Shown here: positions 1 through 25,898 of the stretch, piece by piece | How the letters are laid out: each line of letters opens with the position of its first letter | How positions within the stretch are numbered: position 1 is the stretch's first letter | Source of the DNA: Nitrososphaerota archaeon | GTDB taxonomy: Archaea > Thermoproteota > Nitrososphaeria_A > Caldarchaeales > JAVZCJ01 | Reading direction: 5' to 3' | DNA length: 64,000 nucleotides | Assembly (NCBI GenBank): GCA_038817485.1 | Contig: JAWAZL010000002.1 | Location: 2,918 to 66,917 of the forward strand | Position numbers and translations under genes: made by a program | The notes under the pieces: model-generated | The model's input: only the letters and a program-made list of their open reading frames with translations | What the model was told of the DNA's origin: nothing | Databases searched by the model: none

Positions 1-5
1 CTAAA

Positions 6-2029: not shown

Positions 2030-3215
2030 ATTTATTCATACAGCTGATTTGCATTTAGGGGCAACTACAACATTAAAAGTTCATGGACCAAATATAGATG
2101 AAATAAGGAGAAAAGATTTTCATAATAATTTTGCTAAAATTGTTGATGAAGCTTTAAAGGAAAATGTAGATTTATTTTTAATATCTGGAGATGTTTTTCA
2201 TAAAAGTGACCCATCTCCAAAAGATTTTGTAGAATTTTCTGAACAAATAGGAAGATTAACGGAAGCAGGAATTAAAATTGTTATAATAGCAGGAAACCAT
2301 GATAGGCCAAGAGTTAAAGGAGGGCAGAATCCAATTCGTGGCTTAGTTGAAGCTAAACATCCAAGTTTATATTACATTCAAAGTACTATTAATGAACCTA
2401 TTATTATAGAAGGAAAAAAAGCATCTGTTGGAATTGTCCCCATTCCATACATAGACCCAAGAGTTGTTAAATATATAAATGAAGATTATGAAAAAATATT
2501 AAAAGAAAAAATAAGTAATATTTTAGAAAATCCAAAAATGGACAATGTTGATTATAAAATTTTAATGGCTCATTTAATCGTTTTAGGTGCAGATTATAAA
2601 AAAATTTTTTATTGGTTAGAAGATGAACCTAAAATAAAATTGAGTGATTTAATGGAAGAAAAATTTGATTATATAGCTTTAGGGCACATTCATACACCTC
2701 AACGTATTTCAAAAAAGGTTTATTACTCTGGTTCAATAGAGAAAGTAAGTTTCCTAGAAGAAGACGAAAATAAGAGTTTCATACTTGCAAGTTTTAATAA
2801 TAAGGAAGTAGAAGTAAAAGTAAAAAATTTATCATGTAGACCAATGAAAACTCTTGAATTTACCATAAACTCTAATTTAAATCCTACAGAAACTCTTATT
2901 GAAGCGATTGAAAAATTTAATATTGAAAATGGTACGCTTCTAAGAATTATAGTCAAGCTAGATCAAGTAGCATGGCATAATATAAATATAAGTAAGATCG
3001 AGCAAATGTTAATACAGAAAACAAAAGTTGCAGGATACGAGTTTGATAAAAATTTAATAGAATATAATAAGGAATTAAGAAGTTTACGTATAGAAGGAAA
3101 ACCTTTAAGAGATCAAATTTTAGATTTTATTCAAACACTTAATATAGACGAAAAAATTAAAAATCGTGCAAAAAAACTAGCAGAAGATATAATTGATGAA
3201 GTAGGCTTGCCATGA
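2007..3215 (+). CDS. mre11: Mre11 DNA double-strand-break repair nuclease (calcineurin-like phosphoesterase)
   Basis: The N-terminus is FIHTADLHLGA (phosphoesterase motif I). It also carries GDVFH, GNHD and the GHIH motif. It is translationally coupled to rad50. Confidence 0.85.
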   Translation: MLKKNSFKFIHTADLHLGATTTLKVHGPNIDEIRRKDFHNNFAKIVDEALKENVDLFLISGDVFHKSDPSPKDFVEFSEQIGRLTEAGIKIVIIAGNHDRPRVKGGQNPIRGLVEAKHPSLYYIQSTINEPIIIEGKKASVGIVPIPYIDPRVVKYINEDYEKILKEKISNILENPKMDNVDYKILMAHLIVLGADYKKIFYWLEDEPKIKLSDLMEEKFDYIALGHIHTPQRISKKVYYSGSIEKVSFLEEDENKSFILASFNNKEVEVKVKNLSCRPMKTLEFTINSNLNPTETLIEAIEKFNIENGTLLRIIVKLDQVAWHNINISKIEQMLIQKTKVAGYEFDKNLIEYNKELRSLRIEGKPLRDQILDFIQTLNIDEKIKNRAKKLAEDIIDEVGLP

Positions 3216-5599
3216 TACTTATAAACTTAAAAGTTAACAATATAGCAACTTATAAGTACTACGAATTAAAATTTGATGAATTAAAATATCCATTATTTAT
3301 AACGGGTGAAACTGGAGCAGGTAAAACAACATTTTTTATAGATGCAATTACCGCCGCTCTTTGTAAAGGTGCTTACGGTCATACAACAAATTTTGCAGAT
3401 ATTATAATGAAAGGGGCATCTAGAGCAGAAATTCAACTTACATTCAAAATAGAAGATAAATTGTATAGAATAAAAAGGATTTTTGAAGTAAGAAAAGGTA
3501 CTTCACAAGCTTTTCTTGAGGAATATGATGGAAAAAATTGGACTTTAGTAACTGCTAGAGTAAGTGAGGTTGATAAAAAATTAAAAAATATTATGGGTTT
3601 AGATTATGATGGATTATTAAATTCAGTAATTATTAGACAAGGTGATGTTTATACTTTTATAAAAATGCAACCTTCTCAAAGAAGAGATTTTTTATTAAAT
3701 CTTTTCAAAATAGGATTGGATGAATTAAAAATAAAAACTGATGAAAAAAGAAATATTATTATTAAAGAAATTGAGAATATTGAAAGAGAAATTCAATTTT
3801 TGAAAGAAAATATCGATAAAGAAATAGAATTCTTAAATACAAAAGAAAAAATAGAAAATGAGAAAAAACAATTAGAATTAGAAATAGAAAAAAAAGAATT
3901 TTTTAAAAAGGAAATAGAAAATAGAATAGGTGAAATAAGAAAAAAGTTAAGTAATATTGAAAAAGAATTAAGTATTTTTGAAGAAAAGAACAAGATTTTA
4001 GAAGAAAAATATAAGGAATTAAACAAAATTCAAGAACAAATTAATGAAAAGGAAGCAAAAATAGGAATTTATCCAAGCTGGAAACTTGAAAAAATTAATG
4101 AAATACAAGAAAAAATTAATGAATACTATTTATTACAATCACAAATAATTACCAAAGAAGAAAAGGAGGTTAAACCATATAGAGAACTTCTTAATAAATT
4201 AGAGGAAGTAAACAAAATCGAAAGTTTACTAAATCAATTCGTTAATATAGATAAAAGGCTTAAAGAAATAGAAAATAAAATAGAAGAGATTAAAAATTAT
4301 AAATTTGAAATTCAAGGAAAGATGAATATTGTTTTAGAGGCAATCAAAACTTTAGATAATATTGAAGCAGAATGCCCAGTATGTGGCTCAAAGCTTACAT
4401 TTCAAGTAAAAGAAAATAGAAAAAAACATTTAGAAGAAGAAAATAAAAAATTAAATATAGAAATAGAAAAACTTGACAATCAACTTAAAAATTTAATCAA
4501 TGAAAAAAATGATTTAGAAAAAAAGAAAAATGAAAGAAATAATTTAATAATAAGATTAGAAGTATTAAAAGAAAGTATAGATGGAAGAAAAATAGATAAA
4601 GAAGAATTAAATAAAATTGAAAAACAAATTCAAGAAATGAAAATATATGCAAATATTATTAAGAAGGAAATAGAAGATTTTATTGAAGCACCTATTGAAA
4701 ATTCGCAAAAAATTTTAATAAGTATGATTGAAGCTAAAGATGCTTTATCACAAATAAAATTACTTAGACAAAACCTCATTAATATTCAAAATGATATTGA
4801 GAAAATCGAGGAAGAATTGAAGAGTAAACCAAATTTCTATAAAGAAATGAAAGAATTAAAAATAGAAGAAAATAATCTTAATAAAGAATATGAAAAAGTC
4901 ATAGAAGAAATAAAATTAGAAAGTCAGAAATTAGGGGAAGCAAATCAAAGTATAAAACAAATAGAAGAAGAAATTAAGAAAATTAATGAAGCTAAAGAAA
5001 AGTATAATGAGTTAAATAAGAAACTTAATGAGTTAAAAATTGATAAAGAAGCACTCACACTCCTTAGTGAAAGTGTCTTTGCACCAAGAGCATTACCTAC
5101 AAAATTGCTTGAGGATTATATTCAATTAATTAGCCAATATGCAAGCTATTATATTAAAAAATTTAATCCAGATATAGATATTAATATTGAACTTGTTAAA
5201 GGTTCAAAACCTGAAGAGCAAAAAGTTGAAGTTAAAATAATGTCAGGAGGATATGAAAGAAGATATGAAACATATAGTGGGGGAGAAAGCACACTTATAG
5301 GTTTTGCTATAAGATTAGCAATAGGTAAAGCAATAGCTGAACTTTATGCTGAAACAAAGAAGCCTAAATTTTTAATAATAGATGAAGGTTTTGGACCATT
5401 GGATGAAAAGAAAAGGAATGAAGTAGCTGAAGCAATTTCTGAGCTTTATGAAATAGGGGAGTATGAACAAATAATTGTTATATCACATCAAACAGAATTA
5501 AAATCAAATCCAGCATTTAGGACAGTATTTGAAGTATATAGGGATAGTGATGGTTATAGTAAAATAAGAGATGTGACAGAAACTGCTTATGAAACTTAA
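3212..5599 (+). CDS. rad50: Rad50 SMC-like ATPase
   Basis: Walker A is GETGAGKTT. A long K/E-rich coiled coil carries a central CPVCG zinc hook. The C-terminus has the SGGE signature and the LIIDEGFG Walker B. Confidence 0.9.
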   Translation: MILINLKVNNIATYKYYELKFDELKYPLFITGETGAGKTTFFIDAITAALCKGAYGHTTNFADIIMKGASRAEIQLTFKIEDKLYRIKRIFEVRKGTSQAFLEEYDGKNWTLVTARVSEVDKKLKNIMGLDYDGLLNSVIIRQGDVYTFIKMQPSQRRDFLLNLFKIGLDELKIKTDEKRNIIIKEIENIEREIQFLKENIDKEIEFLNTKEKIENEKKQLELEIEKKEFFKKEIENRIGEIRKKLSNIEKELSIFEEKNKILEEKYKELNKIQEQINEKEAKIGIYPSWKLEKINEIQEKINEYYLLQSQIITKEEKEVKPYRELLNKLEEVNKIESLLNQFVNIDKRLKEIENKIEEIKNYKFEIQGKMNIVLEAIKTLDNIEAECPVCGSKLTFQVKENRKKHLEEENKKLNIEIEKLDNQLKNLINEKNDLEKKKNERNNLIIRLEVLKESIDGRKIDKEELNKIEKQIQEMKIYANIIKKEIEDFIEAPIENSQKILISMIEAKDALSQIKLLRQNLINIQNDIEKIEEELKSKPNFYKEMKELKIEENNLNKEYEKVIEEIKLESQKLGEANQSIKQIEEEIKKINEAKEKYNELNKKLNELKIDKEALTLLSESVFAPRALPTKLLEDYIQLISQYASYYIKKFNPDIDINIELVKGSKPEEQKVEVKIMSGGYERRYETYSGGESTLIGFAIRLAIGKAIAELYAETKKPKFLIIDEGFGPLDEKKRNEVAEAISELYEIGEYEQIIVISHQTELKSNPAFRTVFEVYRDSDGYSKIRDVTETAYET

Positions 5600-5675
5600 T
5601 TTATTACAAATTTTAGAGTATAAGTAATAAAAAATTTAAATATATTTTTCATTATAATAAAAAGGGGCATCTACA

Positions 5676-6587
5676 ATGAAAAATTTTCATTTATATGATT
5701 TAATTATAATTGGAGGAGGCCCTGCAGGAATAACCGCAGCTATTTATGCTGCTCGTAATAAGATTAATTTTATGCTAGTTACAGTTAATATTGGTGGACA
5801 AGTAGTTCTTTCATCCCAAATAGAAAATTATACCGGCTTTCAATATATTACTGGTGAGGAATTAAAGAAAAAATTTCAAGAACATTTAGATAAATATAAA
5901 TTCGATTTAAAAATGGAAGAAGTTAAAAAAATTGAGAGAGAAAATAATTTATTTAAAGTAATAACTGATTCTGGTACTTACTTAAGTAAAACTGTTATAA
6001 TAGCAACAGGAAGGAGACCTAAAGAACTTAAAATTCCTGGTGAAGCAAAATTTAAGAATAGAGGAGTCACATATTGTGCGATATGTGATGCACCACTTTT
6101 TGAAGATTTAGATGTTGCTGTTATTGGTGGTGGAAACTCTGGATTAGAAGCAGTTCTTCAACTTATTAAAATTGCTAAAAGTATAAATCTTATAGAAATC
6201 AATCCAGAACTGAAAGCTGAAAAAATATTAATTGAGAAAGCATTAGCTTCAAATAAAGTAAAAATATGGACTAGTACCAAAATAAAAGAAATAATAGGTG
6301 ATAAAACTGTTAAATATATTAAAATAGAAAGAAACGGAAAAGAAATACTTTTGCCTGTTCAAGGTGTTTTTATAGAAATAGGATCTGTTCCAAATTCTGA
6401 AATAGTAGATTTTGTTGATAAAAATATTTTTGGTGAAATAATTGTAAATTGTAAATGTGAAACTAACATTCCAGGATTGTTTGCTGCAGGAGATGTTACT
6501 AATGTTCCTGAAAAACAAATAATAATTGCTGCAGGTGAAGGATGTAAAGCAGCTTTATCAGCTATAAAATATCTTCGAATGAAATGA
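5676..6587 (+). CDS. trxB: Thioredoxin-reductase-like FAD/NAD(P)-dependent disulfide oxidoreductase
   Basis: FAD fold is IIGGGPAGITAAIYAAR. The redox motif CAICDA (CxxC) and a second GGGNSG dinucleotide fold are present. Length is 303 aa. Confidence 0.75.
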   Translation: MKNFHLYDLIIIGGGPAGITAAIYAARNKINFMLVTVNIGGQVVLSSQIENYTGFQYITGEELKKKFQEHLDKYKFDLKMEEVKKIERENNLFKVITDSGTYLSKTVIIATGRRPKELKIPGEAKFKNRGVTYCAICDAPLFEDLDVAVIGGGNSGLEAVLQLIKIAKSINLIEINPELKAEKILIEKALASNKVKIWTSTKIKEIIGDKTVKYIKIERNGKEILLPVQGVFIEIGSVPNSEIVDFVDKNIFGEIIVNCKCETNIPGLFAAGDVTNVPEKQIIIAAGEGCKAALSAIKYLRMK

Positions 6588-6948
6588 AAATTCTAAATTT
6601 TTTAATTAAATACATTTTTTCTTAAATTTTCTTTGGATATAAAACAGGACGCATATAGTGTAAGATAGGTAATCCATTTAAATAGTCACTTCAGGAGTAT
6701 TATTATTTTTTAAATTCGCTCTTTATAAATAGTTATTTATTTTTATATTGCAATAAGCATAGTGATTAAGAACATAAGATATATATAGGAGTATATTTTA
6801 ATTTATAACTACGTTATGGAGGGGAGTATGACTAGGAAAAGACAGCTATATTAAAGCACTTAAATGTAGAGAGTGTGGTAAAGAGTTTTTACCAACCAAA
6901 ATTTATGCATGTGAACACTGTTTTGCCCCTCTAGAAGTAATTTATGAC

Positions 6949-8076
6949 ATGGATTCTATTAGGCTTTATAGAGGGTTTTTTAAAAATAGGCCACGTACTC
7001 TTTGGCGTTATCATGAACTCTTACCTATAAAAGATAAAACAAAGATTGTGGATCTGGGAGCCGGTTATACTCCACTACACAATTGTGATAGATTAGCTAG
7101 AAAACTTGGAATACGGAAACTTTACATAAAAGATGATACTATAAATCCAACAAATTCTTTTAAAGATAGGCCTGCTACAGTTGCAGTATCCAAAGCTCTT
7201 GAATTTGGCTTTAAGAATATAGGATGCGTTTCAACTGGAAATCTTGCTGCAGCTACAGCTGCTCATGCTGCAAAAGCTGGAATGCCATGCTATGTTTTCA
7301 TTCCATTTGATATTGAAATGAATAAAGTTTTACAAGCAGCAATCTATGGAGCTAAAATAATTGCTGTAAAAGGAACTTATGATGAAGCTAATAGACTTGC
7401 AGCTGAAGCTATAGATGAATATGGTTTAGCTATAGTAAATGTGAATATTCGCCCATATTATGTGGAAGGGTCAAAAACTTTAATTTTTGAAATATGTGAG
7501 CAATTGGGATGGAGAGCACCAGATAATATTATAGTTCCAATGGGTAGCGGAGCATTACTTTGTAGTATCTGGAGAGGCTTAAAACAATTTATGGAAATTG
7601 GTTTAATTAATGGATTGGAAACAAGAATTATAGGAGCTCAACCTGAAGGTTGTTCGCCTATTGTAAAAGCTTTTAAATCTAATTTAAATGATATTTTTCC
7701 TATAGAGAAACCAAGAACAATTGCTAAAAGTTTAGCTATTGGAGACCCTGGAGATGGAATTTATGCTTTAAAAATTATAAGAGAATCAAATGGTGTTGCT
7801 GAATCTGCTAGTGATGAAGAAATATTGGAAGGAATTAAACTTTTAGCTGAGAATGAAGGGATTTTTACTGAACCAGCTGGAGGAGTTACTATGGCAGTTT
7901 TAAAGAAGCTAATCGAGTCAGGTGAAATTTCAAGAGATGAAGAAGTAGTTTGCTGTATTACTGGAAGTGGTTTTAAATCATCTGAAACAATTTTAGAGGC
8001 GATTCCAAAACCAATTGAAATAAATCCATTACTAAAGGAATTGAAAAATTTGTTTGAGGTGAATGATCATGAGTAA
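6949..8076 (+). CDS. Threonine-synthase-family PLP enzyme with an archaeal-type N-terminal Zn-ribbon. The ribbon is encoded upstream of the called ATG, from about 6832 (see findings). It is probably a sulfur-carrier-dependent beta/gamma-replacement enzyme (homocysteine or cysteine formation).
   Basis: The PLP-lysine motif is INPTNSFKDRPA, matching the threonine synthase PTGSFKDR. Residues 6850-6948 in the same frame encode KCRECGKEF...CEHC. The gene overlaps the downstream MoaD-like gene by 14 nt. Confidence 0.7.
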   Translation: MDSIRLYRGFFKNRPRTLWRYHELLPIKDKTKIVDLGAGYTPLHNCDRLARKLGIRKLYIKDDTINPTNSFKDRPATVAVSKALEFGFKNIGCVSTGNLAAATAAHAAKAGMPCYVFIPFDIEMNKVLQAAIYGAKIIAVKGTYDEANRLAAEAIDEYGLAIVNVNIRPYYVEGSKTLIFEICEQLGWRAPDNIIVPMGSGALLCSIWRGLKQFMEIGLINGLETRIIGAQPEGCSPIVKAFKSNLNDIFPIEKPRTIAKSLAIGDPGDGIYALKIIRESNGVAESASDEEILEGIKLLAENEGIFTEPAGGVTMAVLKKLIESGEISRDEEVVCCITGSGFKSSETILEAIPKPIEINPLLKELKNLFEVNDHE

Positions 8077-8347
8077 TGTTAAAGTAAGTTTCTTTGGCAT
8101 TTTAGTTAAAATAACTGGAGAGAAAAACATAGATATTGAAGCTTTAACAATTAGAGATGTTATAAACCTATTAATTGCAAGATATGGAAAAGAGTTTGAA
8201 AAAGCGATTTACAATGAAAATGGAGAGCTAAAGAGATTCATTAATATTTATGTTAATGGGAGAGATATACGTTTTCTTAATTATTTTGATACAAAATTAA
8301 ATAATGGAGATGAAGTTTCAATTATTCCAGCAATAGGAGGAGGCTAA
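8063..8347 (+). CDS. MoaD/ThiS/CysO-like ubiquitin-fold sulfur-carrier protein
   Basis: 94 aa beta-grasp-sized protein ending ...GDEVSIIPAIGGG-stop. It is coupled to the PLP enzyme upstream and the E1-like gene downstream. Confidence 0.75.
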   Translation: MIMSNVKVSFFGILVKITGEKNIDIEALTIRDVINLLIARYGKEFEKAIYNENGELKRFINIYVNGRDIRFLNYFDTKLNNGDEVSIIPAIGGG

Positions 8348-8505
8348 ATGGTAAGAGCAATTTTAAATAAAATTGATTGGTTATCATATTTTATTAAAAT
8401 TAATTGATTTCATAAAAGGAAAATTATATTAAAAAGCTTGAAATAATCTTACAATATGTTTATATCTTAAAAAATTTATATAACAGTGTTATCAAAGGAG
8501 ATTAA

Positions 8506-9597
8506 ATGTTTAAAGAGAGGATAAAAGATCTTTCAAATGAAGAATTAGAATTTTATTCTCGACAGATAGTACTTTCAGAAATTGGTTATAATGGACAATT
8601 GAGATTAAAAAATGCTAAAGTTTGCATAGTTGGTTTGGGCGGGCTAGGTTCTCCCGCAGCATTACAATTAGCAGCCATGGGTATAGGTTATTTACGATTA
8701 GTTGATTTTGATACTGTCGAGATTTCAAATTTACAGAGACAGTATCTTTATGATATAGATTCTTTAGGATACCCAAAAGTTGAAGTAGCAGCAAAAAAAT
8801 TAAATAAGCTAAATCCGAATATAGAAATAGAACCTTTACCTTTATCTTTAAATGTAAATAATGCTGAGGAAATAATTAAAGGTATGGATGTAGTAATCGA
8901 TGGATTAGATGCTATGGCTCCTCGTTATGCTATAAATAGAGCTTGTTTAAAACTTAAAATACCTTATGTTTTTGGTGCTGCAATAATGACATATGGAAAT
9001 GTTTCTACGATAATACCAGGTAAAACTCCTTGCTTAGAATGCTTCCAAGGGAATATCGATGATAATGTATTGCCAACATGTGCTATAGTAGGTGTTCATT
9101 CATCAATATTAAATATTATAGCTAGTATTGAAGTAGCTGAAGCAATAAGGATAATTCTTGGAGAAGAACCTCATTTAGCAAACAAGTTACTTTATTGTGA
9201 TATTAAAGATATGAGATTTATAGAATTAAAAATTCTAAAATCAGAAAGCTGTCCAATATGTGGTTCAAAACCATCAAAACCCCCTATGTTTTTAAAACAT
9301 GAATTGATTAATGAAATTTGTGGTAGAAGAGGAAAAAGAGTTTTTGTTATCACACCAAAGAAAAATTTAGATTTAAATATTGATGAGTTATATCGCTTCT
9401 TAATAAATAATGGTTTTAATATTAATATTAAAGCTAATCTTGGTATAACATTCAAAGATGATTTAAAAATAGCAGCAAGTATTTTAAAAAGTGGGATAAT
9501 GATAGTTGAAGGAGCAGATAATGAAAAAGAAGCTTATGATTTTTATAGTAAAATAATAATTGAAAAATTAAAGATTCCTAGATCAAATATTGAATAA
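8506..9597 (+). CDS. E1-like (MoeB/ThiF/UbaA family) adenylyltransferase with a roughly 110-aa C-terminal extension of unknown function
   Basis: The Rossmann motif is VCIVGLGGLGSPAALQLAAMG. Zinc-motif cysteines are CLEC...CPICG. At 363 aa it is longer than the usual 270 aa. Confidence 0.8.
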   Translation: MFKERIKDLSNEELEFYSRQIVLSEIGYNGQLRLKNAKVCIVGLGGLGSPAALQLAAMGIGYLRLVDFDTVEISNLQRQYLYDIDSLGYPKVEVAAKKLNKLNPNIEIEPLPLSLNVNNAEEIIKGMDVVIDGLDAMAPRYAINRACLKLKIPYVFGAAIMTYGNVSTIIPGKTPCLECFQGNIDDNVLPTCAIVGVHSSILNIIASIEVAEAIRIILGEEPHLANKLLYCDIKDMRFIELKILKSESCPICGSKPSKPPMFLKHELINEICGRRGKRVFVITPKKNLDLNIDELYRFLINNGFNINIKANLGITFKDDLKIAASILKSGIMIVEGADNEKEAYDFYSKIIIEKLKIPRSNIE

Positions 9598-9659
9598 ATG
9601 AAGAGCAGCTTATTTATATATCTTAAGAACATTTTCCTATTTGGCATGCTTAGTTATTT

Positions 9660-9777
9660 CTAAATTACAACTTTTATATTTTCTACACCACTCTTCGCAT
9701 TTTTCAGCCCAAATCTTCTCTTTATATTTTAATTTACATTCTTCACAAATGTAAAATCCATTTATTTCTTTTACCAT
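9660..9777 (-). CDS. Small Cys-rich (Zn-ribbon-like) protein of 39 aa, MVKEINGFYICEECKLKYKEKIWAEKCEEWCRKYKSCNL
   Basis: ATG at 9777 (complement), stop at 9660. It has six Cys in a CxxC...C...C arrangement. It is below the ORF-track size cut-off. Confidence 0.35.
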
Positions 9778-9842
9778 TTTCCAAATTCCTCTTTTTCTAC
9801 AATTTCCTTCTTTTTAATTATATATCACATTCATAATAAATG

Positions 9843-10397
9843 CTAAGGAGTGTATTTTTCAATTTTATCTATGGTTGTTATGAAAAAATCTCCTCCAGCA
9901 TGTAAAAGTGGTTTAAAATTCTTAAAATTATAATGTTCATCAAAAAAATCTTTTGAAGCATATGCTGTTAAAACTTTTCCTATAAATAAATCATGATCTC
10001 CAACTTCAATTATTCTATCTAATTTACATTCTATATGAGCTATACAATCTTTTATTATTGGTGGAGAAACCATTTTAGCTTTTTCTGGAGTTAATCCTGT
10101 TTCTTTAAATTTATCAACATCTCTACCACTTCTTCTTCCACAGAAAATTACTTTTTTAGCTAAATCATAGGATGGAATATTTACAACAAATTCTTTACTT
10201 TCTGCAATTAATTTATAGCTATATCTATTTTTATGAATAGCCATTGCTAAATAAGGTGGATTTCTGCTTAATGGAATTATCCAAGCAATTACGATGATAT
10301 TTGGTTTACTATTTTTATCTATAGTTGTTACTAATGTAGAATTATATGGATGTAGAAGATAAGGGAAAAAATTATTTGGTACTTCAACTTTATTCAT
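9843..10397 (-). CDS. Flavin-reductase-like (FMN-binding split-barrel) protein
   Basis: 184 aa. The overall pattern (VTTIDKNSKPNIIVIAW...HIEC...GDHDLFIGKV) matches the flavoredoxin/flavin reductase domain. Confidence 0.55.
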   Translation of the reverse strand: MNKVEVPNNFFPYLLHPYNSTLVTTIDKNSKPNIIVIAWIIPLSRNPPYLAMAIHKNRYSYKLIAESKEFVVNIPSYDLAKKVIFCGRRSGRDVDKFKETGLTPEKAKMVSPPIIKDCIAHIECKLDRIIEVGDHDLFIGKVLTAYASKDFFDEHYNFKNFKPLLHAGGDFFITTIDKIEKYTP

Positions 10398-10504
10398 TAT
10401 AATCCACTCAATTATTTATTTAAATATTTTCCTAATTTAAATCTTTTTATTCTATTATAAATAAAGATTAAGATTTTTAAGTTTTTGGTAATATCTTGCA
10501 AAAT

Positions 10505-10565
10505 ATTTTCTCATTATAGTTAGCCTCTTTTTCTGGTAGTTACCATATCTAAGTTTAGATTCAAA
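10505..10565 (+). repeat. Degenerate copy of the same IS right-end terminal segment
   Basis: ttctcattatagttagcctctttttctgg matches the consensus shared by the copies at 16695, 32425 and 32600. Confidence 0.4.
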
Positions 10566-10752
10566 GATAAAATTGATACAAATGAAATGCTACATCAATA
10601 TTTTAAGCTATAATCAAACTAATATATTAAAAGCCACTTTTTAATTCTCTTTATTAAGATTTTTCTCTATAGACAGAGTTTATATTTAAGTTAAAAGATT
10701 ACGAGACTGGAAAATGATTTATGTATATAATCGTGAAGGATTTAATAAATTA

Positions 10753-11268
10753 TTAATAGTTTTCTTTAATTCTCTCAATTTTACGTGATAAAATCTCTAT
10801 AAGTTTCTCTTCCTCAAGAGCATGTTTCTCATCTTGTGTAAGTTCTTCTGGTAGCCAATTTGGTTTAGGCTTATCTTTAAAATATGCTCTTATGGCTCTT
10901 CTTAAAGCTCCTACAGCAAGTATTCCGCAATGATATTTTACAGCTGGAAGGCCTCCGAGCTCATCTGAAATTCTTTTCCAAGAAATTTGCCAAGCTTCTT
11001 CTAATGTTTTATCTTTAATAATCTCAGTTAATATACTTGAAGCTGCTATATTTGCTGCACATCCATAACTTTCAAATGATGCTTTAATTATTTTTTGAGA
11101 ATTTTTATCTATTTTTAAGTATATTGCAATCATATCCCCACAAGCTATACTCCCAGCTACAGCTAAAGCATCTGCATCTTCCATTTTACCTAAATTCTTT
11201 GGGTTTTTAAAAAGTTCTAAAACTTTAGGATTATATGGTAAAGGAATTCTACTAGACATTTTTTTCAC
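10753..11268 (-). CDS. iscU: IscU/NifU-like Fe-S cluster scaffold protein
   Basis: It has the GSIACGDMIAIYLK motif and further conserved Cys (YGCAANIA, YHCGILA). It overlaps the cysteine desulfurase gene by 17 nt. Confidence 0.7.
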   Translation of the reverse strand: MKKMSSRIPLPYNPKVLELFKNPKNLGKMEDADALAVAGSIACGDMIAIYLKIDKNSQKIIKASFESYGCAANIAASSILTEIIKDKTLEEAWQISWKRISDELGGLPAVKYHCGILAVGALRRAIRAYFKDKPKPNWLPEELTQDEKHALEEEKLIEILSRKIERIKENY

Positions 11269-12493
11269 CTCCAGGTTTAATTGGACTAATTGAACGTATC
11301 CTAGATATTATTCCAGGCATTTTTTCAATCACATATTCTATATCTTCTTCATTATGAAATGGAGTAACTTTCATTAATAAACTTCCATGAGCTTCTTCAT
11401 ATTTCCTTCCTATAGCTAAAAGTACATGACTAGGTTCTAAAACTCTACTTGTACAAGCACTTCCACTTGAAACATATATTCCATTCAAACTAAGTTCAAC
11501 AGTTAATGCTTCTCCTTCGCAATATAAAAAGCTTAAATTAGCATTATCAGGTGAACGCTTATTTCCTTCAGGTCCATTTAAAAGTACATATTCTATTTCT
11601 TCAATTATATTTTTTATAAGCATATCTCTAAGATTAATCATTTTTAAAGTATAATATTCAAAATTAGAATTTAAAATTTCAATTGCTTTAGAAAAACCAA
11701 TTATAGAAGGGATATTCTCTAAACTTGGCCAAAGCCTTTGAGTACTGAGTTGTCCATAAATTATAGGTTCTAATTTTATTCCTTCTTTTACATAAAGTGC
11801 TCCTGCACCTTTTGGTCCATAAACTTTATGACTACTAAAAGAGGCTAAATCTATATTCAATTTTCTTAAATCCATTTTAATTTTTCCAAGAGCATCACAA
11901 GCATCTGTATGAACAAATATTTCTGAATCCTTATCTTTAATTACATCAACTATTGTTTTTAAATCTTGTATCGTTCCTATTTCATGATTTACAGCTGCTA
12001 TACTTACCAAAAGAGTATTTTTATCAATATTTTCATTTATAAAATCTATATTTACAAACCCTTCTTTATCAACGGGAATTTTAATAACTTTATATCCATA
12101 TTTTTGAAGATAATCAGCTGGAAAAATTACGCTTAAATGCTCTATACTTGATACAAGTATTTTTTTTCTTTCTTTATAAGATTCGGCTAATCCCAAAATA
12201 GCTAAATTATTAGCTTCAGTACCATTATGAGTATATACTATTTCTTCAAGATTACAATTTAAAACATTAGCTAATATACTACTTGATTCGTAAAGTTTCT
12301 CATAGGATTCCCATCCAATTTTATGAGTTATAGACGGATGACCATAGCCAGTATTTTTATAAGCTTCAATTAGTGCTTCCAAAGCTTCAGGAAATATTAA
12401 TCCAGAATTTTCTGAATCGAGGTATACTTCCTTTTTAGGTTTACCGTGAAATTCTAAAAGGGAACGTACATCTTTAATTATATCACTAGACAT
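11252..12493 (-). CDS. iscS: Cysteine desulfurase (class V aminotransferase, IscS/NifS/SufS-like)
   Basis: 413 aa. The PLP-lysine motif is SFSSHKVYGPKGAGALYV. The active-site Cys is in the SSGSACTS loop. Confidence 0.8.
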   Translation of the reverse strand: MSSDIIKDVRSLLEFHGKPKKEVYLDSENSGLIFPEALEALIEAYKNTGYGHPSITHKIGWESYEKLYESSSILANVLNCNLEEIVYTHNGTEANNLAILGLAESYKERKKILVSSIEHLSVIFPADYLQKYGYKVIKIPVDKEGFVNIDFINENIDKNTLLVSIAAVNHEIGTIQDLKTIVDVIKDKDSEIFVHTDACDALGKIKMDLRKLNIDLASFSSHKVYGPKGAGALYVKEGIKLEPIIYGQLSTQRLWPSLENIPSIIGFSKAIEILNSNFEYYTLKMINLRDMLIKNIIEEIEYVLLNGPEGNKRSPDNANLSFLYCEGEALTVELSLNGIYVSSGSACTSRVLEPSHVLLAIGRKYEEAHGSLLMKVTPFHNEEDIEYVIEKMPGIISRIRSISPIKPGGEKNV

Positions 12494-12495
12494 TA

Positions 12496-12723
12496 CTATT
12501 TAACCTCCACGTATATTTCATATACATCTTCATTCTTCTCAATTTTTAAAATATTATGTCCTACATTGGAAGCCCACTCTTTTATATCAGAGGGAGCAGC
12601 TGGATCTGTAGCTAAAAGTTTAATTATTTGCCCTGGTTTTGCTTTGCTAATCGCTTCAACTAATGCTAATAAAGGTCCTGGACAAAACTTAAATCTTGCA
12701 TCAATTACTAAATCTACTTTCAT
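12496..12723 (-). CDS. tusA: TusA-like sulfurtransferase
   Basis: 75 aa with the CPGP motif near the N-terminus (FKFCPGPLLAL). Confidence 0.7.
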   Translation of the reverse strand: MKVDLVIDARFKFCPGPLLALVEAISKAKPGQIIKLLATDPAAPSDIKEWASNVGHNILKIEKNEDVYEIYVEVK

Positions 12724-12739
12724 AATTAATCTACTTTAT

Positions 12740-13150
12740 TTAAGAAATAAATAAGTTTATTTCAGAATCTTTAGCTTTAGATAAGAAAGTTGGAGCACCA
12801 ACTATATCATCTACAAAATCTTCAAGATTTTCTTTATTAATTCCAAATAAATCCATTGTTGTTGAGCAAGCATAGATTTTAAGTTTACCAATATTTTTAA
12901 AAGATTTAATCATATTTTTCCATTCTGGAATTTTACCTGATTCTATCATTTTTATTAAAGATTCCTTATATTCATTATAGTCTAAGCTTACATTTTTAGT
13001 TTCATATCCTTTCTTTAAAGCTAATAAAGCCCAAAAAGTGAAAAATATTTCAGCATCCCATCCTAAAGCAACAGAACTAGTTGCAAGTATTATTGCTGGA
13101 TAAATTTTATCTATTCTTTCGGAAGCTAATATGATAGATATTTTAGGCAT
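12740..13150 (-). CDS. DsrE/DsrF/TusD-like sulfur-relay protein
   Basis: 136 aa with a conserved Cys in IYACSTTMDLFG. It lies immediately downstream of tusA, as in archaeal dsrE3-tusA clusters. Confidence 0.55.
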   Translation of the reverse strand: MPKISIILASERIDKIYPAIILATSSVALGWDAEIFFTFWALLALKKGYETKNVSLDYNEYKESLIKMIESGKIPEWKNMIKSFKNIGKLKIYACSTTMDLFGINKENLEDFVDDIVGAPTFLSKAKDSEINLFIS

Positions 13151-13281
13151 ATTTTCTCAATAAAATAAATATAACGGTGTTATATAAAGTTTTAAAAATA
13201 ATGATGAATATTTTAAAAATATTTTTTATTTTCTTAAAAAAACTTTTATATAAAAATAATTAATTAAGTTCAAATATAAAA

Positions 13282-13617
13282 TTGGTGATGAAAATGAAAA
13301 TAAAAGATGAAAAACTCACTGGATATATTTTACTTGCTATAGGTTTGATACTTATATTTTTTTCGATATTCTCTGTTTTTAGTGTTTTTACTGGTTCTTC
13401 TTCTGCTCCATCATTAATTAAAATGAATGATGTTAAAATTTCTATTCCTGGTGCTGGAGAAACTACAATTTTTGATGGGGAGACTTTAAGTAGTATTACC
13501 AATATATTTCTATGGCTCATTTTAATGATTTTTATTGCTTCAGGAGGAAGTAGAATAGGAAACTTAGGAGTAAAATTATTAAGAGAAATAAAAGTAGAGA
13601 TAAAAAAAGAAGATTAA
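13282..13617 (+). CDS. Small membrane protein (two predicted TM helices)
   Basis: 111 aa with hydrophobic stretches LLAIGLILIFFSIFSVFSVF and IFLWLILMIFIA. It overlaps the antisense ORF 13260..13520, which I consider spurious. Confidence 0.4.
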   Translation: MVMKMKIKDEKLTGYILLAIGLILIFFSIFSVFSVFTGSSSAPSLIKMNDVKISIPGAGETTIFDGETLSSITNIFLWLILMIFIASGGSRIGNLGVKLLREIKVEIKKED

Positions 13618-13661
13618 TAAAAAAGAAAATAAAAAGTTAGATTTATAAGAGATGGTTTAAA

Positions 13662-14585
13662 ATGACTGAAATAATTGTTATAGGACATAAAAATCCAGAT
13701 ACAGACTCTATAATAGCTGCAATTGCTTATGCTTTTTTAAAAAATAAGATTGATAATAGAAATAATTATATTGCTGCAAAATGTGGAGAAATAAATAAAG
13801 AAACTAAAGCAGTACTTAAAAAAGCTTCATTAAATGAGCCAATATTGATTGAAAATATTTCTGGAAAAAAAGTTATACTCATTGATCATAATGAATTTAC
13901 TCAAGCTTGTGATGGTATAGAAGAAGCAGAAATTTTAGAAATAATAGATCATCATAAAATTAATTTCTCTTATCCTTTACCAATATATTATCATGCTGAA
14001 CCAATAGGTTCAACATCTACAATAATTACTAAAATGTTTTTTGAAAAAAATATTGTAATAGAAAAAAATATTGCTCTAGCTTTATTAGCAGCAATACTCA
14101 GTGATACAGTAGTTTTTAAATCAAGCACTACTACAAATGAAGATTACGAAATTGCTAAAAAACTTGCTGAAATTGCTAAAATTAAAGATATCGAAGCTTT
14201 TGGAATAGAAATAAAGAAGGAAAAAGCAAGTATAATTGGAAAATCAATAGAAGAGATAGTTCTTAGTGATTTTAAAGAATATAATTTTAAAAAAGGTAAA
14301 GTTGGTATTGGACAAATTGAAATTGTTGATTTTGAAGAAGTTGAAGAAAGGAAGAAAGAAATTATAAATGGAATGGAAAAAATTAAAAATAATGAAAAAT
14401 TTGATTTAGTATTATTAATGGCAACAAACATTATTTTAGGCGATACTCAGCTTTTATGTGTTGGAGATATAGAAAAAGTCGAAATGGCATTTAATGCAAA
14501 AGTGAAAGAAAATTGTGTTTATCTAAAAAATGTTATGTCAAGGAAAAAGGACATTGTACCTAAGATCGAAAAAGTATTTTCATAA
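13662..14585 (+). CDS. ppaC: Manganese-dependent inorganic pyrophosphatase (family II, DHH/DHHA2)
   Basis: The N-terminus is IVIGHKNPDTDSIIAAIAYA. DHH-type motifs are ILIDHNE and IIDHHK. Length is 307 aa. Confidence 0.8.
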   Translation: MTEIIVIGHKNPDTDSIIAAIAYAFLKNKIDNRNNYIAAKCGEINKETKAVLKKASLNEPILIENISGKKVILIDHNEFTQACDGIEEAEILEIIDHHKINFSYPLPIYYHAEPIGSTSTIITKMFFEKNIVIEKNIALALLAAILSDTVVFKSSTTTNEDYEIAKKLAEIAKIKDIEAFGIEIKKEKASIIGKSIEEIVLSDFKEYNFKKGKVGIGQIEIVDFEEVEERKKEIINGMEKIKNNEKFDLVLLMATNIILGDTQLLCVGDIEKVEMAFNAKVKENCVYLKNVMSRKKDIVPKIEKVFS

Positions 14586-14961
14586 AATATCAACATTACG
14601 GAAAGCAATATTATCTTCAGTAAAAGAAACAATATTTGGTATAATGGCCACTTATGCTATAAAATTTTCTCTATAGAAAACTTTAGCGTTCTCATGGATC
14701 TTATAATAGTTCTAGTAACTATCATAATATTTAGTTATGTTATGCACTTATAGAAACTATATATGGCACTCTCTTTAAACAACACATATTACTCACTTTG
14801 CTTATAGAGGGATTTTTTACGGGAATAATATAAGATAATGCTTTAAAATTAGGAAATTAAAAATAGTTGAAACTACTTAAATGAAAAATATTAATTTTTA
14901 AGTCAAAATTAAGAGCTTCAGTAGTTTTTACTATAATAAATCTCAATTAATATTTGATTAT

Positions 14962-15075
14962 TTACTTCTTTCTTTGTGTTAATGTAAGTAATAATTCTCT
15001 CCAAGTCCTCTTGCCTTTTACTTTTCTCAATTTATTATATTCTTTCTCACTTAGGATTATTCTTATTTGTTTCAT
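14962..15075 (-). CDS. Possible small ribbon-helix-helix-like protein (37 aa, MKQIRIILSEKEYNKLRKVKGKRTWRELLLTLTQRKK)
   Basis: A short ORF in an otherwise empty 700-bp AT-rich spacer. The sequence resembles small archaeal RHH/antitoxin-like proteins. The call is tentative. Confidence 0.25.
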   Translation of the reverse strand: MKQIRIILSEKEYNKLRKVKGKRTWRELLLTLTQRKK

Positions 15076-15297
15076 ATCACTCACACTAAAATATAGTAGG
15101 TAATACTTACTTATATATTTTTCGCTATTTCTTTAAGTTTATAGTGCTTAATATATTAGCATTTTTTTGACATAAATGTTAGCATTACCAATACTTATTA
15201 TTTTTTAAATATTCGTACAAAATTTTTGTTACAACATAGGAAGTACCTTTTTCAATTCTATATGGCTAAAGTAGAGTAGAGGAACTTAGTTACGAAC

Positions 15298-15666
15298 TTA
15301 TTTAAGTGATATTACAGATGCATTATCTATAATTTGCACTTCTATTAAGTTTTCTTCATCAAACCATGATATGTATGATAATAAAACTGATTTTATTAAA
15401 AAATATTGTCCAATATTATTTACTTTATTTAATGTTTTTTTAATTACGATTTTAATAAGCTCATCAAAACTTTTAGAATTAGTACTTAATTCATTAAGTA
15501 TAAGATTTCTTATTTTCATTATTGCCGATACATTGATTTCAATAAGTTCTTCAATATTTTTTGTAGGAAAACCATGAGAAGGTAAAAATATTAAATTTTT
15601 TAGTATTTTAAGATTTTCAATAGTTTCTAAGGCTTTTTTAACATTTAAATCTTTAAAATATTTCAA
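15298..15666 (-). CDS. Hypothetical protein
   Basis: 122-aa ORF with no recognisable motifs. Confidence 0.35.
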   Translation of the reverse strand: MKYFKDLNVKKALETIENLKILKNLIFLPSHGFPTKNIEELIEINVSAIMKIRNLILNELSTNSKSFDELIKIVIKKTLNKVNNIGQYFLIKSVLLSYISWFDEENLIEVQIIDNASVISLK

Positions 15667-15741
15667 AAGTAGCTTATAAAAGTTATGTTTAGACTTTTAT
15701 TAATATTTATGAATAAGTAATTTTTATTATAAAACAAAGGA

Positions 15742-16674
15742 ATGGCTTTCATGAATAATAAGGCTAACATTAAAGCACTTTCATACGCATTATTTTTAAC
15801 ATTGATAATAATGTTTTTTGAAATTATAGGAAGCATTATTTCTGGAAGTTTAGCTTTAATGAGTGATGCTGCGCATATGTTAATAGATAGTACTTCATTA
15901 ATAGTTGCTTTTATAGCATTAAAAATTTCTGAAAAAAAGCCTACTGAAAATAAAACTTATGGCTTTTATAGAGCAGAAATTTTATCAGCATTTATAAATG
16001 GAATATTGCTTGCTTTTGTAGCATTTTATATTTTTAGAGAAGCCTATTTAAGATTATTCAATCCTATAAATATTCTTGAAAAACCTATGCTTATAGTAGC
16101 AATAATAGGATTGAGCGTAAATATTTTTTCAGCCCTCATATTATTTAAGCCTTCAAATTTAAGCTTAAGTATTAAAGGGGCATTTTTACATGTTTTAAGT
16201 GATGCTGTTTCTTCTATTGGTGTGATAATAGGTGGAATAATAATATTTTTTACTAAACTTTATGTGGTAGATACTCTCATAGGGATAGGGATAAGTATAT
16301 TAATATTTAGGGGGTCTTATCAACTTTTGAAAGAGGCTATAAATGTGCTAATGGAAGGAGTGCCAAAAGGATTAAAATTGGAAAACATCATTAATGAAAT
16401 AATAAAAGTAAAAGGAGTAAAGAATATTCATGATATTCATGTTTGGAGTATTGCAACAAATGTAAATGCATTAAGTGCACATATTGTTTTAGATAACATT
16501 TCCCTTAAAGAGGCCGATAAAATTTTAAATGAGATAAATATTTTACTAAAAAATAAATTTAATATAACACACACAACTCTACAAATTGAATGTGATTTAT
16601 GTCCAAAAGGGACAATATGTATTTTCTCGCCTGAAAATGAAAATCAGAAAGATAAAACATTTTTGAGAGAATAA
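15742..16674 (+). CDS. Cation diffusion facilitator (CzcD/ZitB-type) metal efflux transporter
   Basis: Six TM helices with His/Asp metal-site motifs HMLIDSTS and HVLSDAVSS, plus a C-terminal cytoplasmic domain. Confidence 0.8.
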   Translation: MAFMNNKANIKALSYALFLTLIIMFFEIIGSIISGSLALMSDAAHMLIDSTSLIVAFIALKISEKKPTENKTYGFYRAEILSAFINGILLAFVAFYIFREAYLRLFNPINILEKPMLIVAIIGLSVNIFSALILFKPSNLSLSIKGAFLHVLSDAVSSIGVIIGGIIIFFTKLYVVDTLIGIGISILIFRGSYQLLKEAINVLMEGVPKGLKLENIINEIIKVKGVKNIHDIHVWSIATNVNALSAHIVLDNISLKEADKILNEINILLKNKFNITHTTLQIECDLCPKGTICIFSPENENQKDKTFLRE

Positions 16675-16694
16675 TGTATTGTCAGATAAGGAAA

Positions 16695-16775
16695 TCTTCT
16701 TACCATAGTTTAGCCTCTCTCTGGAGTTTGCCTATATTCTAAGCTTGGATTGGAATATAAGCTTCCTATTCCTCC
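16695..16775 (+). repeat. Degenerate solo copy of the IS right-end terminal segment (cttaccatagtttagcctctctctgga...)
   Basis: Collinear similarity to 32600-32680 over about 80 nt, drifted towards AT. Confidence 0.5.
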
Positions 16776-16912
16776 TAAAATGCTTATAAAATTGTGGTTA
16801 ATATTATTAATATTAAATAAAAGAAATAAAAGATAAATTAGTATTCCATTAATTGTTTTTCTATTATTTGGATATATTATCAGCATTATTTATGGAGATA
16901 TTTTAAAAATAT

Positions 16913-17449
16913 TTATTTCAATATAAGACTTGGTTTAGTATAATATATTAGAAACAATTCCAAAATAGCCGATATTAATAGAATAAAATAAATAATTATT
17001 AATTTATTAATAGAAAGATTCTTCTCTAAAGTAATTTTTATTGCTAAAAATATTGAATAAAATTCTAAAATACCATGGGGTAAAGAAAAAATTATAAATA
17101 AAAGAGCATTTATTAAGTTAACTTTTAAGATATTTGTAGTTCTTATAATACTAATAGAGAAAAAAATTATAGTAAAAAATAATGCAAAAATTTTTGGGTG
17201 TTCAAGAACCATATATTCAAATTCACGACGTGGTAAAAAATCCACAACTCTTACATAAAATGACATACCGATTATTATTATTGAAACAACTATAACATTA
17301 TGTAAGAATATTTCTAAAAGGCCTAATATTTTATCTGATAGAATTATTTTATACGCATATCTGAAAATAATGGTATTCTCGATATATCCTAATAAAAGGA
17401 AGAGGAGAAATACAAATCCTAAAAGAATAGTTTCAATTTTTTTACGCAT
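16913..17449 (-). CDS. Integral membrane protein (SpoIIM/DUF95-like)
   Basis: 178 aa with multiple hydrophobic helices. Confidence 0.4.
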   Translation of the reverse strand: MRKKIETILLGFVFLLFLLLGYIENTIIFRYAYKIILSDKILGLLEIFLHNVIVVSIIIIGMSFYVRVVDFLPRREFEYMVLEHPKIFALFFTIIFFSISIIRTTNILKVNLINALLFIIFSLPHGILEFYSIFLAIKITLEKNLSINKLIIIYFILLISAILELFLIYYTKPSLILK

Positions 17450-17464
17450 TTTAGATTCACTCTA

Positions 17465-18007: not shown

Positions 18008-18106
18008 ATTTTATTCATCTTTATGCTTTTTTTAATTTGTTATTATTTTTTATAAAAAAATATTTACAAAAGCAAGAATATTAATTTATTTAAAAATGAG
18101 TAAAAT

Positions 18107-18440: not shown

Positions 18441-18494
18441 GAGCAGAAATATTCGCTGAAAAAGTAATAACAGAATTTAAATAATGATGAAGTA

Positions 18495-19328: not shown

Positions 19329-19363
19329 TATTGCATCTCCTTTGATTTATTTCAAAAAAATCT

Positions 19364-25855: not shown

Positions 25856-25898
25856 AATGAATATTCTATTACAAATATATAAAAATTAATAACTTTTA

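Follow-up and report, generated by a model that had tools for sequence, protein, structure and literature searches.

The stretch of DNA analysed here, hereafter the window, comprises 64,000 nt of contig JAWAZL010000002.1 from a Nitrososphaerota archaeon (GCA_038817485.1), and all coordinates are window positions unless a related locus is named. It carries a gene cluster in which a ThrC-family pyridoxal 5'-phosphate (PLP) enzyme, a ThiS/MoaD-like beta-grasp carrier and a ThiF/MoeB-type activating enzyme (E1) lie close to genes for an IscS-type cysteine desulfurase, an IscU-like Fe-S scaffold, TusA and a DsrE-like protein. As argued below from sequence comparisons, this locus probably encodes an archaeal route to homocysteine of the MetM/MetO type. 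The window is AT-rich, with a G+C content of approximately 26%, and its archaeal origin is indicated by an archaeal signal recognition particle (SRP) RNA, a tRNA-intron endonuclease gene, an A-type ATPase operon and the NurA-HerA-Mre11-Rad50 genes. Identical copies of the window proteins were found in metagenome-assembled genomes at NCBI labelled "Nitrososphaerota archaeon" as well as in hot-spring metagenomes.

All eight genes listed by the first-pass annotation of this DNA were recovered at the coordinates it gave and with the expected Pfam and NCBIfam domains (Table 1), including the ThrC-type enzyme with its PTNSFKDR motif and Zn ribbon, the beta-grasp protein ending in GG and the MoeB/ThiF-type E1. 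That annotation had described three coupled plus-strand genes, which holds for the enzyme and carrier genes, overlapping by 14 nt, but not for the E1 gene, which lies 158 nt beyond the carrier gene (8348-8505). This spacer differs by a 27-nt indel between otherwise identical strains of different samples (131 nt in L001, 5044-5174, versus 158 nt in L002, 11141-11298; L-numbers are labels of the related loci compared with the window locus). The minus-strand relay genes were as described, but a flavin-reductase-like gene positioned between the E1 and IscU genes had been missed. A different flavoprotein, of the old yellow enzyme (OYE) family, occupies the equivalent spot in the L177 cluster.

The 94-aa carrier, which has a free C-terminal Gly-Gly and scores above the cutoff of TIGR01687, a model of an archaeal MoaD subfamily, shares 37% identity with the carrier of a riboswitch-controlled Nonomuraea gene pair described below. 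Its closest solved homologue is CysO of M. tuberculosis (3dwg_C, from the CysM-CysO complex), ahead of the SAMP1 and MoaD structures. The translated E1 displays a GxGxxG nucleotide-binding motif and two CxxC pairs, and its best PDB matches are MoeB (1jw9) and ThiF (1zfn). Neither protein reached the equivalog cutoffs of the SAMP/UbaA system (57.5 vs 60 for the carrier with the SAMP1 model NF041918; 199 vs 450 for the E1 with the UbaA model NF047750). No rhodanese domain was detected in the E1 with Pfam, and the MoeZ model scored 180 against a cutoff of 647. The C-terminal 110 aa of the E1 (9265-9594) matched no Pfam family; however, a full-length alignment with PRK12475, an NCBIfam MoeB/ThiF family of approximately 338 aa, spans this C-terminal domain of about 100 residues, which might take the place of the rhodanese domain as a docking site for sulfur donors. 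Searches for a JAMM peptidase found none among the scanned window open reading frames (ORFs) of at least 130 aa and none by phmmer in window positions 1-20000 with the JAB protein of L009 as query, while JAB genes are present in related loci. As for the relay proteins, the translated desulfurase has an SSGSACTS loop and an SHK PLP-lysine motif, and IscU has three Cys and the Asp of a CGD motif. The NCBIfam equivalog models for NifS, IscS and IscU all scored below their cutoffs, while the corresponding Pfam domains passed.

Table 1. Features of the window and, in the last row, a regulator-like gene of related loci
Feature	Coordinates	Strand	Supporting matches or remarks
Thioredoxin-reductase (TrxR)-like flavoprotein	5676-6587	+	PF07992; TIGR01292 308 bits, cutoff of 343 not reached
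Conserved 5' element	6805-6831	+	Palindrome, Shine-Dalgarno-like GGAGGGG, out-of-frame ATGs, TGA
MetM-like ThrC-family PLP enzyme with N-terminal Zn ribbon	6832-8076	+	PF00291 268 bits
MetO-like 94-aa ThiS/MoaD beta-grasp carrier, ends GGG-stop	8063-8347	+	PF02597 62.8 bits; TIGR01687 74 vs cutoff 49.5
ThiF/MoeB-type E1 adenylyltransferase	8506-9597	+	PF00899 252 bits
Flavin-reductase-like protein, relevance uncertain	9843-10397	-	PF01613 122 bits
IscU/NifU_N Fe-S scaffold	10753-11268	-	PF01592 134 bits
IscS/NifS-type class-V cysteine desulfurase	11252-12493	-	PF00266 206 bits; TIGR03402 372, below cutoff 530
TusA with CPGP motif	12496-12723	-	PF01206 69 bits
DsrE/DsrF/DsrH-like, sulfur-carrier-like protein	12740-13150	-	PF13686 87 bits; NCBIfam DsrE2 model 60 vs cutoff 210
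tRNA-intron endonuclease gene	21749-22327		
tRNA match	39516-39623	-	108 nt, long enough for an intron
Archaeal SRP RNA	40895-41215	-	180 bits
Cro/HTH_3-like gene (related loci)	L009 9252-9521; L174 8210-8572; L175 8250-8519; L176 5739-6071; L177 6026-6349	-	

The PLP enzyme and its riboswitch-controlled relatives

The window enzyme, a ThrC-homologous PLP protein of fold type II, combines a CxxC...CxxC ribbon with the PTNSFKDR motif, whose Schiff-base Lys (codon 7162-7164) aligns with K61 of Thermus ThrC. The closest solved structures are bacterial threonine synthases, and over the catalytic body the enzyme shares 39-43% identity with solved ThrC proteins (2zsj, 6cgq, 1uim, 2d1f, 1e5x). Relatives with 65-77% identity occur in Bathyarchaeia, Asgard archaea, Nitrososphaerota and other Thermoproteota, the best match in the representative-genome collection being 72% identical. 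When compared with curated hidden Markov models, the protein passed the thrC equivalog TIGR00260 (307 vs a cutoff of 167) and NF006050 (344 vs 303). It fell well short of the model for cysteate synthase, the ThrC paralogue of methanogens, with only 82 bits for TIGR03844 (cutoff 325). Since TIGR00260 is also passed by a Nonomuraea protein controlled by an S-adenosylmethionine (SAM) riboswitch (270 bits), this model cannot separate ThrC from MetM-type function. Indeed, no current NCBIfam model separates the two, and there is no dedicated MetM model in NCBIfam. At the centre of NF006050, which bears the name "threonine synthase", stands a group of Zn-ribbon ThrC-like proteins without a carrier (Aliarcobacter, 646 bits), encoded among sulfonate/cysteine transporter genes. 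The names of both TIGR00260 and NF006050 are probably over-extended.

In papers that cite its original description (Hasebe et al., 2024, Appl Environ Microbiol 90:e01247-24), MetM of Streptomyces albulus is a ThrC homologue that makes homocysteine from O-phosphohomoserine and MetO thiocarboxylate, the metM/metO genes have a SAM riboswitch upstream, and the label of threonine synthase is one with which MetM is "often misannotated". In a tblastn search of a plasmid collection, the closest match to the window enzyme (45.5% identity) came from a Nonomuraea chromosome filed there by mistake. This Nonomuraea gene encodes a Zn ribbon. Upstream, a SAM riboswitch (RF00162, 68.7 bits) ends approximately 14 nt from its start, and a gene for a 91-aa ThiS-like protein ending in GG follows 25 nt downstream. 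Related loci were gathered with a representative-genome scan and a metagenome scan, each of which returned 80 loci. RF00162 was found directly upstream in all 11 actinobacterial loci tested with Rfam (Nonomuraea and ten more), and an nhmmer profile built from the actinobacterial elements placed a SAM riboswitch upstream of 89 of the 159 family loci. Single-sequence phmmer searches detected a carrier gene directly downstream of the enzyme gene in 134 of the 152 loci with enough sequence. A ThiS profile made from stop-to-stop ORFs was dropped for these carrier counts, being contaminated by overlapping ORFs in high-GC genomes, and the IscS and TusA matches from the run that included it are used as secondary support only.

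We built a neighbour-joining tree on the catalytic body, with the window protein and 82 relatives as ingroup. These proteins formed one clade, split from the outgroup at a bootstrap of 86/100. Outside it fell the five solved threonine synthases (Aquifex, Bacillus, Thermus, Mycobacterium and Arabidopsis), whose biochemical validation is assumed, together with a second paralogue from Nostoc and three carrier-less Zn-ribbon ThrC-like proteins. The ingroup was picked by similarity to the query, so that its own monophyly proves little; the informative point is that the riboswitch-controlled proteins stand on the same side as the window protein. Nostoc sp. (L029) carries a MetM-like gene (10001-11218) with its carrier as well as a second ThrC homologue approximately 7.7 kb downstream, which groups with the Mycobacterium threonine synthase. 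MetM-like and ThrC-type genes thus coexist as paralogues in one genome.

The clade also differs from ThrC in its active site. Positions T88, S155, N157, R160 and N188 of Thermus ThrC are replaced by L, N, R, Y and S, respectively, in 95-100% of the 159 clade members (L138, N205, R207, Y210 and S239 in the window protein), whereas T, S, N, R and N are present in all six ThrC-type sequences, namely the five solved ones and the Nostoc paralogue. The clade conserves the PLP lysine (K61) and N154 in Thermus numbering. We take T88, S155, R160 and N188 to be ligands of the substrate phosphate, an assignment that reportedly goes back to work by Omi and colleagues in 2003 and by Murakawa and colleagues in 2011; N157 (R207 in the window protein) is presumably a neighbouring residue and not itself a phosphate ligand. 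In ThrC, the phosphate ion stays bound and serves as the base by which water is guided to the beta carbon. Remodelling of the phosphate pocket would be expected if the window enzyme admits a protein-borne thiocarboxylate to the gamma carbon. The five replacements could serve as a simple signature to tell MetM-type proteins from ThrC. Overall, these comparisons support the view that the enzyme is not an ordinary threonine synthase and that it fits the published description of MetM/MetO.

Archaeal gene neighbourhoods and other window features

Across 43 archaeal loci, the carrier gene follows the enzyme gene wherever the sequence extends far enough, and an E1 gene is usually found within 2.5 kb, directly adjacent in most of the loci. 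At least one of IscS, IscU, TusA and DsrE2 was encoded within 8 kb in approximately 16 of the 20 non-thaumarchaeal archaeal loci with usable flanks. The arrangement of these relay genes varies from one locus to the next. They are convergent in the window and divergent in L103 and L104, where DsrE2-TusA-IscS-IscU stands back to back with the enzyme gene. In Geoglobus (L049), DsrE2 is directly upstream and TusA lies right behind the E1, while in L177 the whole set is tightly spaced on one strand in the order PALP-ThiS-TusA-DsrE-Aminotran_5 (IscS)-NifU_N (IscU)-flavoprotein-ThiF. That the linkage survives convergent, divergent and co-directional rearrangement argues for a functional connection, and since the co-localisation recurs across archaea it is not due to chance. 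In L176, the gene next to the enzyme-carrier pair on its downstream side encodes homoserine dehydrogenase, a tie between the module and the homoserine branch. Sulfite reductase, 3'-phosphoadenosine 5'-phosphosulfate (PAPS) reductase, ThiI or a second ThiS-ThiF-JAB module are encoded near the pair in other relatives.

This second module, seen in L009, L174, L175 and L176 (e.g., L176 13526-15517), encodes a ThiF E1 together with a Prok-JAB peptidase and a longer protein of ThiS/Urm1 type, and it often sits beside TusA-NifU-IscS. As these four loci provide no separate E1 for the carrier beside the MetM-like gene, one E1 may serve two carriers. In L007, the place of the IscS block of the window, 5-9 kb downstream of the enzyme-carrier-E1 genes, is taken by a second PALP-family gene of a type other than ThrC, a gene resembling sulfite reductase and a TusA gene (16124-17239 and 18668-20396). 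In the thaumarchaeal loci L013, L016-L022, L027 and L061, from Nitrososphaerota of the ammonia-oxidising type, the ThiS-like carrier is fused to the N terminus of the E1, which makes the Gly-Gly internal. A survey took this ThiS-ThiF fusion for a MoaD-MoeB protein of molybdopterin synthesis (PMC11237513). The constant place of the fusion behind the MetM-like gene suggests a role in methionine synthesis instead, in which case its cleavage would be implied.

Upstream of the enzyme gene, the TrxR-like neighbour is shared with L007 and missing from more distant loci. Elsewhere in the window, positions 24578-28236 contain a Lar_N-domain gene (minus strand), a four-carbon acid sugar kinase gene (SBD_N/NBD_C) and a PdxA-family dehydrogenase gene. 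This cluster is similar to genes for threonate/erythronate catabolism in bacteria and is unusual for archaeal DNA.

The 5' end of the enzyme gene

The start of the enzyme gene was not where the first-pass annotation had placed it: ATG 6816 is out of frame with the enzyme, and reading from it ends at TAA 6852. The frame that encodes the ribbon and the ThrC body opens at 6832, right behind a TGA (6829-6831), and has no in-frame ATG, GTG or TTG in 6832-6948. The first such codon is at 6949, downstream of the ribbon, and gene callers accordingly predict a 375-aa product that lacks the ribbon. The start region is identical in six independent assemblies and the same kind of 5' anomaly is present in lineages diverged to 57-88% protein identity, which rules out a simple sequencing or assembly error. 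In the non-canonical lineages, the ribbon codons have ratios of nonsynonymous to synonymous change (pN/pS) of 0.08-0.20, with synonymous sites near saturation. The ribbon is therefore under strong purifying selection, which indicates that it is translated.

Alignment of the upstream regions of L009, L094, L096-L103 and L107-L114 revealed a conserved archaeal order of elements: a TATTCC-N4-6-GGAATA palindrome, an A-rich stretch with TATAAATA, an ATAAC-N3-GTTAT palindrome and GGAGG(G). The first palindrome is degenerate in the window, where the 5' element consists of ATAAC-TAC-GTTAT (6805-6817), GGAGGGG (6818-6824) and out-of-frame ATGs at 6816 and 6828. The distance between the end of GGAGG and the first ribbon Cys codon is fixed at 41-42 nt in most related archaeal loci and at 35-36 nt in one subclade. 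The ATG at the GTTAT/GGAGGG junction is usable as a start in only about 4 of 13 lineages. It is in frame in L174, L176 and L177 and is followed there by an in-frame TGA 2-3 codons on (M-E-G-stop), it is replaced by ATA or ATC in L007/L109, L009 and L096, and it is one nt out of frame in the window, L175 and L101. Just behind GGAGG, 7 of the 8 non-canonical lineages have another ATG, from which exactly 1 nt leads into the open frame. Anomalous start regions were noted at window positions 6805-6852, at L007 9860-9900 and L009 9870-9930, and in L096, L105, L109 and L174-L177.

From these alignments we tentatively suggest that the enzyme gene and its orthologues in many thermophilic archaeal lineages could need an unconventional, conserved mode of translation near their 5' ends in order to be expressed, although we hold this to be somewhat doubtful. 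The event may be a programmed +1 shift, stimulated by the Shine-Dalgarno-like element, during initiation or immediately afterwards, a stop bypass, or initiation at CUC/CUA, a conserved Leu codon located 7-9 nt past the Shine-Dalgarno-like element. Genome-wide use of TGA as a sense codon was ruled out, as the neighbouring TrxR-like gene stops at TGA at a normal length. A start at the conserved Ile codon of a YIK motif is unlikely in general, given that several lineages have GTT or GTC there. The regions ahead of the archaeal genes, searched for riboswitches and structured RNAs, yielded no Rfam match, even at E=1, and no significant fold. If true, a 5' translation event on a sulfur amino acid gene could be a regulatory device, and the start anomaly provides a separate lead into non-canonical translation in archaea. 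The upstream palindromes could be operators at which a regulator responsive to methionine or sulfur binds. Five related loci (Table 1) have a small Cro/HTH_3-like gene (89-120 aa) in divergent orientation ahead of the MetM-like gene, which makes its product a candidate for that regulator; this gene is not in the window, where the TrxR-like gene occupies this place.

Proposed route to homocysteine and comparison with known systems

Based on the families to which the proteins belong, the E1 would adenylate the C-terminal Gly-Gly of the 94-aa carrier, and the carrier acyl-adenylate would be converted into a carrier thiocarboxylate. The PLP enzyme would bind O-phosphohomoserine and eliminate phosphate, after which the carrier thiocarboxylate, instead of the water used by ThrC, would attack the gamma carbon to yield homocysteine. 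The gene neighbourhood suggests that the sulfur could come from cysteine by way of the IscS-type desulfurase, and that the persulfide could be relayed to the activated carrier through TusA and/or the DsrE-like protein. These would stand in for the rhodanese domain of MoeZ, which is not present in the E1. Persulfide transfer would be followed by a reduction before the carrier thiocarboxylate is used by the enzyme, and the TrxR-like protein may be a source of reductant, though this link is weak. The net result would be a protein-mediated transfer of sulfur from cysteine to homocysteine, with IscU probably also taking part in ordinary Fe-S cluster assembly. Homocysteine is favoured over cysteine as the product by the SAM riboswitches, by the homoserine dehydrogenase gene of L176 and by the futility of making cysteine from cysteine-derived sulfur.

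The first-pass annotation had suggested a sulfur amino acid pathway dependent on a protein thiocarboxylate, and the clade, the carrier linkage, the riboswitches and the active-site residues support such a pathway of the MetM/MetO type. Tight clustering with bona fide threonine synthases, which it had raised as an objection, was not seen. The gene linkage, whose absence from related genomes it would have taken as a counterargument, holds for the carrier and for the sulfur genes in the proportions given above, and the profile searches it had proposed set the enzyme apart from cysteate synthase while leaving it above the cutoff of the non-discriminating TIGR00260.

Several points weigh against the proposed route. 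In L007, the closest locus outside the species (88% identity), the IscS block does not adjoin the enzyme, carrier and E1 genes, which themselves stay together, and the thaumarchaeal loci are entirely without that block. Neither a homoserine kinase nor a methionine synthase was found among the scanned window ORFs of at least 130 aa. In related systems, carrier-homocysteine adducts require a JAMM peptidase for release of the product, and JAMM is absent from the same set of ORFs. Other carriers may depend on the same E1, and a canonical start codon is missing from the enzyme gene. The enzyme passes the NCBIfam thrC equivalog cutoff, though the riboswitch-controlled Nonomuraea protein passes it as well. 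The phosphate-ligand roles on which the pocket argument draws are ones we presume. The assignment to the MetM family was set by the riboswitch clade and the gene neighbourhood as a proxy, and not by the S. albulus MetM/MetO sequences themselves. Finally, a cyanobacterial (Microcystis) member of the clade was reported to have threonine synthase and threonine deaminase activity in vitro, assayed without a thiocarboxylated carrier (PMC12172450).

This last result agrees with an enzyme that is an ordinary threonine synthase, adjoined by a SAMP/Urm1-type carrier and E1 pair for tRNA thiolation or molybdopterin synthesis. So do the scores of the enzyme with TIGR00260 (307 vs 167) and NF006050, the match of the carrier to the archaeal MoaD subfamily model and the interpretation of the thaumarchaeal fusion as MoaD-MoeB (PMC11237513). 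We nevertheless regard such an arrangement as improbable. TIGR00260 also passes a SAM-riboswitch-controlled protein, the clade stands apart from the five solved threonine synthases with its phosphate-pocket residues replaced throughout, and the enzyme and carrier genes, which overlap in the window, are paired in 134 of 152 loci from two domains of life. Moreover, the Nostoc locus has both MetM-like and ThrC-type paralogues, and the SAMP1 and UbaA models remained under their cutoffs. Synthesis of cysteine from O-phosphoserine, in the manner of CysM/CysO, appears somewhat less probable still. The enzyme belongs to the ThrC family and not to the CysK/CysM family, the SAM riboswitches of bacterial clade members point to methionine, a homoserine dehydrogenase gene adjoins the pair in L176, and cysteine would be a futile product if the sulfur were drawn from a cysteine desulfurase. 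These arguments outweigh, in our opinion, the position of CysO as the closest solved homologue of the carrier, the presence of sulfite reductase, PAPS reductase and SepCysS/SepSecS-like genes around related loci, and the cysH-thrC fusion reported in Thermoplasmata.

A stronger competitor, which we consider unlikely and yet well ahead of the two preceding ones, accepts the thiocarboxylate chemistry and takes IscS-IscU-TusA-DsrE2 as a general unit for Fe-S and sulfur trafficking, the carrier being fed by environmental sulfide or another donor. IscS-IscU pairs serve Fe-S assembly in general, thiolation reactions in several anaerobic archaea draw on free sulfide, and the block is non-adjacent in L007 and missing from the thaumarchaeal loci. 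However, the linkage outlasts rearrangement in many lineages, from the co-directional genes of L177 to the divergent ones of L103/L104, DsrE2 and TusA directly flank the enzyme-carrier-E1 genes in Geoglobus, and the E1 is without the rhodanese domain that supplies the persulfide in MoeZ. It is hardly credible, by comparison, that the enzyme gene is a pseudogene with a disrupted 5' end. Apart from the missing canonical in-frame start before the ribbon and the stop met from ATG 6816, the 414 codons contain no other stop or frameshift, six assemblies are identical, the anomaly recurs at 57-88% protein identity and the ribbon is under purifying selection (pN/pS 0.08-0.20). The exact protein is missing from the NCBI source though its neighbours are listed, suggesting a pseudogene flag there.

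We know of no explanation for homocysteine synthesis in many archaea outside the methanogens. If it is of the MetM/MetO type, as we think probable, the window locus with its many relatives offers a concrete and testable candidate route. The clustering with IscS-TusA-DsrE2 suggests how an activating enzyme that lacks a rhodanese domain could be provided with sulfur, besides offering a ready-made set of genes for reconstitution. Under the naming of TIGR00260, this homocysteine route would be overlooked in metabolic reconstructions of uncultured archaea, a systematic annotation error. The system is a new archaeal member of an already known pathway published in 2024, and the abstract by Hasebe and colleagues of that year is said to mention an archaeal distribution already.

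The window locus shares with MetM/MetO of S. albulus a ThrC-homologous PLP enzyme followed by a ThiS-like carrier that ends in Gly-Gly. Its enzyme falls in the clade of the riboswitch-controlled actinobacterial pairs and has the same substitutions relative to ThrC, which we use as a proxy for MetM. The activator of S. albulus is MoeZ, an E1 with a rhodanese domain, whereas the window has an adjacent, putatively dedicated ThiF-type E1 without one. S. albulus also possesses the JAMM peptidase Mec, while the window carrier already ends in Gly-Gly and no JAMM/Mec was found among the scanned ORFs of the window. In addition, the window system is archaeal and linked to IscS-IscU-TusA-DsrE2. Where the bacterial genes have a riboswitch, it has conserved upstream palindromes, no riboswitch and a non-canonical start.

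Similar chemistry is known from other systems. The HcyS/HcyF/HcyD/MetY proteins of Wolinella succinogenes, reportedly described by Krishnamoorthy and Begley, have in common with the proposed route the use of an E1-activated carrier thiocarboxylate as the sulfur donor for homocysteine. MetY, however, is said to be a fold type I O-acetylhomoserine sulfhydrylase that acts on O-acetylhomoserine and is not of the ThrC family, and the cluster reportedly includes a JAMM peptidase. CysO/CysM/MoeZ/Mec+ of M. tuberculosis follows the same logic, from E1 to thiocarboxylate to a PLP-dependent replacement on a phosphorylated hydroxy-amino acid, but CysM belongs to the CysK family and converts O-phosphoserine into cysteine, whereas the window enzyme belongs to the ThrC family. 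With ThrC itself, the window enzyme shares the fold, the PLP lysine motif and presumably the substrate, O-phosphohomoserine; it differs in its N-terminal Zn ribbon, an 8-residue insertion near residue 285, the five replaced positions and its separate clade. The ThiS/ThiF/IscS/ThiI and MoaD/MoeB/IscS/TusA relays of E. coli hand the persulfide of a desulfurase through small sulfur carriers to a beta-grasp protein in its adenylated form. They work in the synthesis of cofactors and tRNA from dispersed genes, whereas in the window the relay genes are clustered with a putative amino-acid-forming enzyme.

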